A stretch of DNA of 64,000 nucleotides, taken from Candidatus Palauibacter sp. (GTDB taxonomy: Bacteria > Gemmatimonadota > Gemmatimonadetes > Palauibacterales > Palauibacteraceae). The notes under the pieces are model-generated. The model was not told the DNA's origin, searched no databases, and worked only from the letters and a program-made list of their open reading frames with translations. A program made the translations under genes and the position numbers. Position 1 is the stretch's first letter. Each line of letters opens with the position of its first letter. The DNA lies in assembly GCF_965197445.1 (NCBI RefSeq), contig NZ_CBDANE010000003.1, positions 43,604 to 107,603 on the forward strand. Direction: 5' to 3'. Shown here in pieces: positions 9,643-10,677 of this stretch.

Positions 9643-10677
9643 ATGCGGCCCGGTCATGTCGTGGCGGAGGTGGGCAGGCGCTCTGGCACGCGGCGAGGTG
9701 AACTTTGCTTCTATTGGATCGCCGCCCAAGGCGACCGGGACGAGTTCGCGCGAGACCTGATCGAGCTGAGCGACGCCCTGCCGCTCTGCTCAATCGTCGT
9801 TCGCATAGAGGGGTTCGTTGATCCGAACGCGGTCGCGCACGACCTCTTGCGAGTGCTCGAGAGTGCCAAGGCCGAATTGGTTCGTCCGGATCTTGCGGAG
9901 CGGATTCGGGGGGCGGACTGCCTAGATGTGGTATTGATCGCGCGCCGAGAACTGGAGTTGGAGAGCACCTCATCGCCGATCGCCCTTCCGGAATGGTTCC
10001 CTCTCCGCCCGGCTACCTCCGTGACGGCGACAATCGCCGACCTTACCTGGTCAACGCGAGTTCCCCTTAGCGCGACCGAACTCCGCCTGGGCGAGCTGCA
10101 GAGTCTGCTATTCGATTTGGATCGGGAACTCCTCAGGAATCTGCGCACCAGTCACGACCGGGACTATCGACTGGTCAATTCACTCCACGACCGGCTGAAA
10201 CCGAAACTTGACAAGCCCATTTCGTTCGACGAGCTATTGTCCCGGGCGGAGACGAAGCTCGATCGCATCCAGAACCCTCGCGACTACCGGCCGAGCGCGG
10301 CACACAATCCAACGATCATGGGCCACCTCTGGCGTCTCGCTAACGCTACATCGACCGACGGGCTAGTGAAGCTGGCTAAAGTCGTTGTCAAAGCCTTGGA
10401 CATCTCACCCGCGGCCGTGGAGAACCGCCATGAGAGCATCGTCACGATACTCAACCGGCCGAAGGATCTGAGCAGTGACCCTTTGGAGCGGTGGGGCTTC
10501 AACCTAATCGTAACCATCCGCGGGGCCTGTCAGCTTGCCACGGCTGCGGCGCATGCGGACGAATACGCGGAGTATTCGTTGCCGTTGGTGCGTTCTCTCT
10601 CGCGCGACCTTCGCATCTCCATCGACGAATCCGTCAACGCGCTGGCCTCTCTGCGACGAGTCCGCAGCGCCGGATGA
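9643..10677 (+). CDS. hypothetical protein, operon partner of the P-loop NTPase
   Basis: ATG lies 4 nt after the upstream stop, preceded by a GGGGG run. It has the same strand and the same lower-GC composition. I see no recognisable catalytic or binding motif. Confidence 0.6.
   Translation: MRPGHVVAEVGRRSGTRRGELCFYWIAAQGDRDEFARDLIELSDALPLCSIVVRIEGFVDPNAVAHDLLRVLESAKAELVRPDLAERIRGADCLDVVLIARRELELESTSSPIALPEWFPLRPATSVTATIADLTWSTRVPLSATELRLGELQSLLFDLDRELLRNLRTSHDRDYRLVNSLHDRLKPKLDKPISFDELLSRAETKLDRIQNPRDYRPSAAHNPTIMGHLWRLANATSTDGLVKLAKVVVKALDISPAAVENRHESIVTILNRPKDLSSDPLERWGFNLIVTIRGACQLATAAAHADEYAEYSLPLVRSLSRDLRISIDESVNALASLRRVRSAG

Follow-up and report, generated by a model that had tools for sequence, protein, structure and literature searches.

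A conserved protein without recognisable motifs is the constant partner of an AAA+ ATPase in a mobile two-gene cassette

In a 64,000-nucleotide stretch of the genome of Candidatus Palauibacter sp. (NZ_CBDANE010000003.1, positions 43,604 to 107,603; hereafter the window), the gene at positions 9643–10677 of the plus strand encodes a protein of 344 amino acids (aa) that begins with ATG, ends with TGA (10675–10677) and belongs to an unannotated family. It follows the gene for an 803-aa ATPase (7227–9638, plus strand), whose TAG stop codon (9636–9638) is separated from the ATG by the four nucleotides GGGG (plus-strand junction 9636–9645). What is this protein, and what does it do beside the ATPase? 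A first-pass annotation had read it as an intact gene that starts four nucleotides past the stop of a nucleoside triphosphatase (NTPase) gene, after a run of G, and both the open reading frame (ORF) and inspection of the sequence agree with that reading. We find that the two genes form a conserved and horizontally mobile cassette, and that the pair is undescribed in four family libraries, two structure libraries and the PDB sequences. The partner is most likely a regulatory pseudo-NTPase devoid of Walker motifs, acting as the sensor or regulatory subunit of the ATPase within a system of conflict or defence that has yet to be described. We hold this reading tentatively, with a probability of roughly 0.45.

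The partner family and its linkage to the ATPase

To describe the linkage between the two genes, we scanned one genome per species with a profile of the ATPase, which yielded 55 loci, and sought the partner in each by hmmsearch on six-frame ORFs. In all 53 loci that could be assessed, the partner immediately follows the ATPase in the same orientation; the remaining two are a contig end (L026) and a truncated ATPase (L046). The distance from the ATPase stop to the partner start is –1 to 40 nucleotides (52 loci measured, the window included), and starting from the partner led to five more contexts with the same pair. Judged by record titles, the hosts of the 55 loci include Gemmatimonadota (Palauibacter and Longimicrobiales), Acidobacteriota (Vicinamibacterales), Binatia, Planctomycetota, and Alpha-, Beta- and Gammaproteobacteria (including Stenotrophomonas and Sphaerotilus). 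Many are Actinomycetota, among them Streptomyces, Micromonospora, Saccharothrix, Kitasatospora, Dactylosporangium, Amycolatopsis and Nocardia. The proposal that the window carries a conserved and tightly coupled two-gene ATPase module is therefore borne out. By the first-pass annotation, homologues occurring in metabolic operons independently of the ATPase would have counted against it. The cassette does often sit in ordinary operons, but in no assessable locus of the sample was the partner seen apart from the ATPase.

Homologues of the partner are plentiful, so that the other possibility raised at first pass, an ORF without conserved homologues, can be set aside. A word-indexed search returned 56 homologues, and when 1.84 billion cluster representatives were searched exhaustively with a profile, a family of 421 clusters at 50% identity emerged (E ≤ 1e-3), 384 of them with E ≤ 1e-10. 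Among the 150 best-scoring representatives listed, complete homologues are nearly all stand-alone proteins of about 330–350 aa. The homologues retain the N-terminus M-[KR]-P-x-H-V-V, which indicates that the start codon of the window gene is correctly called. Across 73 diverse members at 24–45% identity, W25, R32, D67, S111, P116, W118, R216 and H304 are invariant, and R54, F58, N62, P112, P120, D133, P217, L252, R272, Q297 and Y308 are nearly so; no Glu or Lys is invariant in these sequences. The best-conserved blocks are SSPxxLPxWFP (residues 110–120), which falls in the N-terminal domain together with the first six of the invariant residues, and NPxDYRPS (211–218) and ACQLxTAAAHADxY (295–308), which fall in the helical C-terminal domain. 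Residues 11–20, 81–90 and 171–210 and the C-terminal tail are variable.

This conservation is not matched by any known family. Neither the partner nor the ATPase of the window has a match at E ≤ 1 in Pfam, PADLOC or NCBIfam, nor any in PHROGs, and the earlier description of the partner as a protein without recognisable motifs thus holds in all four libraries. A permissive Pfam scan of all 73 partners revealed no recurring family, PDB sequence searches (profiles A1, A2 and A4) returned nothing for the partner, and it matches none of the profiles for PD-(D/E)xK, HNH, HEPN, Toprim, PIN, TIR, SIR2 and HD domains.

The AlphaFold2 model of the partner, built from a 29-sequence alignment, has a predicted local distance difference test score (pLDDT) of 92.7 and a predicted template-modelling score (pTM) of 0.86. 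It consists of a five-stranded alpha/beta domain (strands 20–27, 48–52, 93–100, 109–114 and 126–133) and a helical remainder (149–343), in agreement with the first-pass proposal of a small N-terminal alpha/beta domain followed by helices. From predicted secondary structure and conservation, the N-terminal domain comprises residues 1–147 (positions 9643–10083, plus strand) and the C-terminal domain residues 148–344 (10084–10674, plus strand). Foldseek found no significant match to the model in either PDB or BFVD (best E 0.047 and 0.037). The top non-significant matches in both libraries are all AAA+ proteins of similar length: the pol III delta'-like protein 2gno, FtsH, RFC, ORC, HslU, MalT, and phage clamp-loader or 'DNA polymerase III' proteins. 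In the model, the chain appears to begin with a helix, strand 1 (20–27), a loop (AAQGDRD) and a helix (32–42). The invariant R32 occupies the position where the Lys/Thr of a Walker A motif would be expected, and strand 3 (VVLIARRE, 93–100) the position of a would-be Walker B. Neither motif is present: GK[ST] and hhhhD[DE] are both lacking, the loop that follows strand 1 reads AAQGDRDE, and strand 3 ends in ARRE.

Clamp-loader delta and delta' subunits, which have an AAA+ fold with degenerate nucleotide sites, resemble the partner in length (about 330–345 aa) and in the succession of alpha/beta and helical domains. Such subunits are among the top matches of the partner, non-significantly so (E 0.04–0.3, TM-score below 0.2, root-mean-square deviation 17–20 Å). 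Unlike them, the partner has no clamp or polymerase context, and the helices that would follow strands 3 and 4 are missing from its core. We also considered the partner as a recombinase and rejected this, as the order and identity of its conserved residues fit no serine, tyrosine or DDE enzyme and no such fold was matched.

The ATPase and the genes that extend the pair

The 803-aa protein can be placed among the AAA+ ATPases, in the neighbourhood of ORC/Cdc6, the archaeal ATPases and AAA_16/AAA_22, and is predicted to be active. Its family comprises at least 297 clusters at 90% identity, the full-coverage rows (≥95% of the query) are 774–873 aa long, and no Pfam domain is recorded for any entry listed. 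The Walker A motif CSVRRSGKTT (S461-x4-G466-K467-T468, in which Ser replaces the first Gly), the Walker B motif VLVIDEYE (D541/E542) and a GHPF motif at about residues 649–652 are invariant in 33 homologues, and the C-terminus contains a lid and a winged-helix-like region. The AlphaFold model is moderate (pLDDT 76), falls below 50 around the P-loop (414–481) and in the segment 580–615, and is particularly poor there at 586–609. With the C-terminal half, Foldseek retrieved RuvB, ORC subunits, RFC and the archaeal AAA+ proteins 2qen and 2fna (probability 0.96–0.99, E 7e-3 to 3e-2). Weak Pfam matches within the 33 homologues are to AAA_22 (11 members), nSTAND1 (two) and BrxC_BrxD (one, E=0.2); no member attains a gathering score, and the best E is 1e-3.

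Proteins of the archaeal ATPase type (2qen, PABY2304; 2fna, SSO1545) and of AAA_16/AAA_22 have the same order of Walker A, Walker B, GHP-type motif and winged-helix-like end. The ATPase of the module differs from them in having a constant, dedicated partner gene and an extra N-terminal region of about 410 residues (positions 7227–8450). This region is helical with a small beta unit, carries no annotation and contains the conserved polar residues H115, Q118, Y123, H157, Y166, R215 and S219; we regard it as a candidate effector or sensor domain. PDB sequence searches with the region gave coiled-coil-type noise alone (Vipp1 at E=0.006, apolipoprotein, Vip3), which we do not trust. A HEPN domain was considered and rejected, as the Rx5H of the window protein (R109...H115) is not kept across the family.

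In actinobacterial relatives the pair is followed by a third gene, which is not found in the window locus. Directly 3' of the partner, nine loci from as many actinobacterial genera or families encode a protein of about 487 aa with an N-terminal NYN domain, at a distance of 20–76 nucleotides in the six loci measured. The match to PF01936 is strong (E 1e-12; 48.7 and 46.9 bits against a gathering cutoff of 24.2), and nearly all of the 74 clusters of this protein family carry it. In Crossiella equi the operon runs from the ATPase (787 aa) and the partner (341 aa) through the NYN protein (476 aa) to a 232-aa protein with two predicted transmembrane helices. Conflict systems typically have such additions of a nuclease and a small membrane protein, which here provide the strongest evidence for assigning the module to this functional class. 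Its unaltered form in loci with a dedicated NYN nuclease also suggests that the partner is not the main effector. We found no description of the pair in the literature, whether through accession numbers or as a defence system of NYN protein and ATPase.

The actinobacterial loci with the NYN protein are L035, L039, L045, L047, L048, L049, L052, L057, L061, L083 and L085. A protein of about 230 aa is encoded after the NYN gene in L083, L047 and L085; its two transmembrane helices are predicted from L083 alone. The NYN gene and the small-protein homologue of L085 are convergent to the ATPase–partner pair.

A possible analogue of the module was found in a further locus (L084, positions 6001–11141), in which a homologue of the NYN protein (38% identity) precedes a 728-aa ATPase annotated as AAA_16 and a 438-aa AAA_16/AAA protein. 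The 728-aa ATPase aligns to the window ATPase with hhalign (E=0.001), and the two have the motifs hhhhDE[YF]xxLF, QDxxPxF and GHPF[LF]T in common. The 438-aa protein has the position and layout of the partner, but with intact GAPGIGKT, VFMVDDFD and GHPS motifs. This set could represent the module in an ancestral-like and fully active form; the arrangement supports, without proving, descent of the partner from an ATPase by loss of its Walker motifs. The set adjoins an integrase gene and an HTH_17 gene.

Two known types of system were compared with the pair and rejected. In McrBC, the gene for an AAA+ NTPase is followed by a translationally coupled partner of about 350 aa, so that operon layout and partner size resemble those of the module. 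However, neither the PD-(D/E)xK domain of McrC nor the GTP-specific AAA+ domain of McrB was detected in the module with Pfam or PADLOC, and McrBC-type restriction was rejected in view of the lack of any nuclease-domain match and of an invariant Glu or Lys in the 73 partners. An Avs/STAND receptor was likewise rejected: there are no repeat domains, the NTPase lies in the C-terminal half, the two-gene architecture is fixed, and nSTAND1 is matched only weakly and in two of 33 homologues.

Mobility and insertion sites of the cassette

The cassette is horizontally mobile. In the window, the GC content is 0.58–0.63 across positions 7227–10700 and 0.68–0.72 in the flanks. Upstream lies a PD40/amidohydrolase gene (3843–7079, plus strand), separated from the ATPase start by a cassette-specific leader of 147 nucleotides (7080–7226, plus strand). 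A direct repeat of 141 nucleotides brackets the cassette, with its left copy (6945–7085, plus strand) forming the 3' end and stop codon of the functional amidohydrolase gene and its right copy (10878–11018, plus strand; 92% identical) an orphan amidohydrolase 3' end; both copies correspond to the last 45 or so codons of this gene plus the stop. Between the partner and the right copy lies a pseudo-fragment of the 3' end of a TM2-domain gene (10695–10829, minus strand), recognised by blastn to an empty-site locus (L066) and by inspection of the sequence; the intact TM2-domain gene is at 13132–14124 (minus strand). The scar fragments that the first-pass annotation had placed after position 10677 are thus real, and consist of this TM2 pseudo-fragment and the amidohydrolase pseudo-copy.

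With the amidohydrolase C-terminus we retrieved 17 metagenomic loci, all of them without the cassette; some are short contigs ending soon after the gene. The two closest long loci display the empty junction: in L066 the amidohydrolase stop is followed after 17 nucleotides by a convergent TM2 gene, and in L067 the order is amidohydrolase, outer membrane protein (OMP) and TM2. About 17 nucleotides past the partner stop, the window has the TM2 3' pseudo-fragment and then the amidohydrolase pseudo-copy, an order that is a circular permutation of the empty junction. This order suggests single-crossover integration of a circular DNA that contained the cassette and flanks of its donor.

Similar scars occur elsewhere. 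The cassette is flanked by a 260-nucleotide repeat (97.7% identity) after a pyrroloquinoline quinone (PQQ) dehydrogenase gene (L001, 7252–7511 and 11223–11480), by a 276-nucleotide repeat (85%) at an ABC-transporter gene (L023, 5612–5887 and 10058–10327) and by a 154-nucleotide repeat (96.8%) in L056 (2726–2879 and 6579–6732). The start-to-start spacing of the repeats is 3.85–4.45 kb, and therefore only the two genes can lie inside them. All flanking repeats are derived from the host, from unrelated host genes and with lengths of 34–276 nucleotides, and one intact copy of the host gene is always kept. No terminal repeats or motifs common to the loci were found at the cassette ends. Site-specific integration at a conserved amidohydrolase attachment site was rejected, as the amidohydrolase is found beside the cassette in Palauibacter loci only. 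A transposon AAA+ regulator of the kind that acts with a transposase (TniB, TnsC or IstB) was rejected as well, with two genes alone between variable host repeats and ends that are not conserved.

The cassette also occupies other sites. In five Vicinamibacterales loci (L017, L021, L024, L030 and L055; about 5980–9400) the cassette is placed between ileS and lspA-lgt with spacers of 19 and 18 nucleotides; in two genomes (L007 and L019) it directly follows bioB, and it also occurs inside an exopolysaccharide (EPS) cluster. Two conjugative IncFII/IncR plasmids from blood isolates of Klebsiella pneumoniae, NZ_CP115715.1 (L063, record positions 45912–49321) and NZ_CP095122.1, carry the pair between IS6 and IS110 transposase genes, with both genes annotated as hypothetical proteins. 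The Klebsiella pair has the protein accessions WP_159215432 and WP_159215431; the two proteins are 801 and 334 aa long, and the stop and start codons overlap by one base. The cassette was found in two of 72,556 plasmid records, and the Klebsiella copy had no DNA match in E. coli genomes. Approximately 12 of 55 copies are broken by insertions of about 1.1–1.9 kb or by frameshifts. Interrupted copies include L022 and L059, which are on the same contig (CBDCCO010000007.1), as well as L019, L029, L031 and L054. One genome has a duplicated segment of more than 11 kb with two cassette copies, which were struck three separate times by one repeated insertion of about 1.7 kb, presumably an insertion sequence (IS).

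We found no sigma-70-like promoter in the leader or the surroundings of the cassette and no terminator beyond chance, and Rfam and tRNA searches around the cassette found nothing. The lack of a promoter signal, which is weak evidence in this phylum, would fit read-through transcription from the upstream gene.

Alleles of the cassette also appear to be replaced at occupied sites. A syntenic Palauibacter locus (L064, partner at 10417–11460) is about 90% identical to the window in DNA from the amidohydrolase through partner codon 147 or thereabouts, after which the identity collapses. By hidden Markov model match columns, the two loci are 90% identical in the ATPase, 77% in the partner N-terminal domain and 51% in its C-terminal domain. 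At the bioB site, the flanks of two related genomes are 84–87% identical, and the cassettes 65%. Family-wide, the two partner domains evolve at similar rates, somewhat faster than the ATPase, and both cases are therefore better explained by recombinational replacement than by a hypervariable domain.

The DNA 3' of the window cassette contains a full OMP_b-brl_2 gene (10948–11694, minus strand) that is only about 75% identical to the copy of a relative, a gene for a 401-aa DUF5128-like beta-propeller protein (11487–12692, minus strand) without a counterpart in L064, and an OMP fragment (12705–13040, minus strand) that is 94–97% identical to L064. This run of genes resembles the product of a second insertion here, accompanied by partial gene duplication. 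Elsewhere in the window, two more large PD40/amidohydrolase paralogues (25–30% identity) are found in tandem (45980–49564 and 49561–53373, plus strand).

A proposed regulatory subunit and its alternatives

How might the two proteins act together? The partner would be a degenerate ATPase-like protein, in which an alpha/beta core without Walker motifs is joined to a helical domain. It would bind the ATPase and act as its sensor or regulator, as is proposed for BrxB beside BrxC in bacteriophage exclusion (BREX) systems. The module would then be a nucleotide-dependent conflict switch directed against phages or mobile elements, possibly through abortive infection. Its output in Actinomycetota would include the added NYN nuclease and, at some loci, the small protein with two transmembrane helices; in the two-gene form of the window, the effector would be either the N-terminal region of the ATPase or the partner itself. 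We prefer to see the partner as a sensor or regulator, rather than as an effector, because it has no nuclease- or hydrolase-like set of residues, because the NYN nuclease is a separate protein, and because the faint fold signal is that of a degenerate AAA+ protein.

BREX provides the closest precedent, as an active winged-helix AAA+ ATPase there stands beside a smaller NTPase-like protein without Walker motifs. BrxC is an AAA+ ATPase of the ORC/Cdc6 type, and BrxB is an inactive NTPase of the signal transduction ATPases with numerous domains (iSTAND) that may sense invaders and regulate an effector; iSTAND proteins also accompany MoxR-vWA conflict systems (PMC12839542). However, the module is not a member of BREX. 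Comparison with BrxB and BrxC of E. coli HS by hhalign gave probabilities below 1%, DUF1788 and DUF499 were not matched in Pfam, and no PglX, PglZ or BrxL is nearby; PglX and PglZ were seen neither in the Pfam gene tables of individually fetched loci nor among the 25 commonest neighbouring Pfam families. In addition, the ATPase gene comes first, the reverse of the order in BREX, and the module ATPase is 800 aa long with its P-loop in the C-terminal half, in contrast to the 1200 aa and N-terminal P-loop of BrxC. On these grounds of sequence, gene content, gene order, size and domain position, membership was rejected.

A role in defence is plausible, if unproven. It is supported by the layout of NTPase and partner, the added NYN and transmembrane proteins, the patchy horizontal spread, carriage on plasmids, frequent inactivation and allelic replacement. 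The first-pass annotation had proposed an anti-phage module with the partner as effector or sensor; its minimal two-gene layout stands, whereas the anti-phage role and the effector remain proposals. We scanned the genes within 3.5 kb of the cassette with Pfam for two batches out of three (288 ORFs) and with PADLOC for the first batch alone (140 ORFs). This comparison, with gene calls from a crude heuristic based on GC content at third codon positions and with no background control, is indicative only. No family is more frequent among the neighbours than phage integrase (6 of 140 and 3 of 148 ORFs).

Several observations count against a regulatory pseudo-NTPase in a defence system. As regards defence, the neighbours are mostly housekeeping or metabolic genes, with some integrases and transposases; defence-like neighbours are few (type II methyltransferases, AbiLi, MzaA, mad3 and PDC-M38A, from PADLOC in 140 ORFs), with no clear enrichment; and PADLOC-DB v2 yielded no component match at E ≤ 1 for either protein. 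Searches of IMG/VR, INPHARED and PHROGs (2.9 million viral contigs and 50,697 phage records) did not find the cassette, and the two-gene form has no evident effector. As regards the partner itself, full-length Foldseek matches have probabilities of at most 0.28 and TM-scores of about 0.17–0.19, the correspondence to Walker sites was judged by eye only, and the core lacks the helices that normally follow AAA+ strands 3 and 4. Comparison of the partner by hhalign with its own ATPase, with BrxB and with the 438-aa protein of L084 revealed no relation (probability below 1%). BrxB is about 200 aa long and is reported to be fast-evolving and poorly conserved, in contrast to the 340 aa of the partner with its large helical domain and its eight invariant and eleven near-invariant residues. 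Moreover, the conserved polar residues of the partner (R, D, S, H, Y, N and Q) could equally mark an active site.

This last point leads to the alternative that the partner is an effector enzyme with a new active site, either a hydrolase or an enzyme that modifies nucleic acids or nucleotides, which the ATPase would switch on after sensing a trigger. Polar residues are strictly kept at 24–45% identity (R32, D67, S111, R216 and H304, along with R54, N62, D133, R272, Q297 and Y308), the best-conserved blocks are short loop or helix motifs such as SSPxxLPxWFP and AAAHADxY, the fold has no significant structural neighbour, and nothing else in the two-gene form is an obvious effector. However, an enzyme of this kind seems unlikely to us, given that no Glu or Lys is invariant, that no known nuclease or hydrolase profile is matched, and that the weak fold matches are ATPase-like rather than hydrolase-like. 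Actinobacterial versions, furthermore, add an NYN nuclease while the partner keeps every part. A broader proposal would accommodate either a new pseudo-NTPase or an enzyme of new fold: an undescribed two-component immune or abortive-infection system, carried as a minimal promoter-less cassette that is placed after host stop codons, transcribed by read-through and moved through circular intermediates that leave duplications of 130–280 nucleotides. As a whole this combination is possible, although doubtful. In its more radical version, the two proteins would themselves drive insertion.

The pair could instead serve the mobility, replication or maintenance of its own cassette, as an AAA+ DNA-binding ATPase like TniB, TnsC, IstB or ORC together with a new recombination or targeting factor, or could be an addiction pair. 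The extreme compactness of the cassette is suggestive in this respect (a leader of about 147 and a tail of about 15 nucleotides here, 19 and 18 nucleotides at ileS–lspA), as are its insertion right after stop codons in operons, the independent insertions with host duplications of 131–276 nucleotides and the two genes alone between them, and the presence of two copies in each of two genomes. The winged-helix-like C-terminus and the weak AAA_22 matches of the ATPase point in the same direction, AAA_22 being a family that we take to include TniB-like proteins. However, the ends have no common terminal repeats or motifs and the repeats vary in length, the scar in the window has the order that one crossover with a circular donor fragment, mediated by the host, would produce, and there is neither a DDE, serine or tyrosine recombinase catalytic set nor a recombinase fold match. 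Of the two genomes with two copies, one has copies that are 67% identical and thus independent acquisitions, and the other a large segmental duplication. We consider it quite improbable that the pair acts only for its cassette. An ordinary cellular function without any conflict role, such as that of an AAA+ chaperone or assembly factor with its adaptor, or of a DNA-transaction factor recruited to various operons, appears very unlikely. The cassette is often co-directional with and close to ileS-lspA-lgt, bioB, the EPS cluster or the amidohydrolase gene, its neighbourhoods are mostly metabolic and it is absent from phages, all of which speaks for such a function. Its distribution is nevertheless patchy across phyla, it is missing from close relatives at the same site, its GC content is atypical, and its host operons are mutually unrelated; copies are often broken by IS elements, some are carried on plasmids between IS elements, and others are linked to the NYN nuclease.

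We therefore retain, at the strength given above, the reading of the partner as a regulatory pseudo-NTPase that would form a complex with the ATPase. The family spans at least six phyla, including Streptomyces and its relatives, and reaches a clinical Klebsiella plasmid. With a confident AlphaFold model that has no structural neighbours, the partner is well suited to experimental structure determination. The insertion of the cassette just after stop codons in essential operons, between long host-derived repeats, offers a tractable example of the movement of a small cassette without a recombinase of its own. If the pair does act in defence or conflict, a widespread family has been wholly missed by current annotation and defence-finding tools. 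The pair would then provide, in addition, an independent second example of an active AAA+ ATPase accompanied by a look-alike without Walker motifs, and would help to test the sensor role that has been proposed for inactive NTPases.

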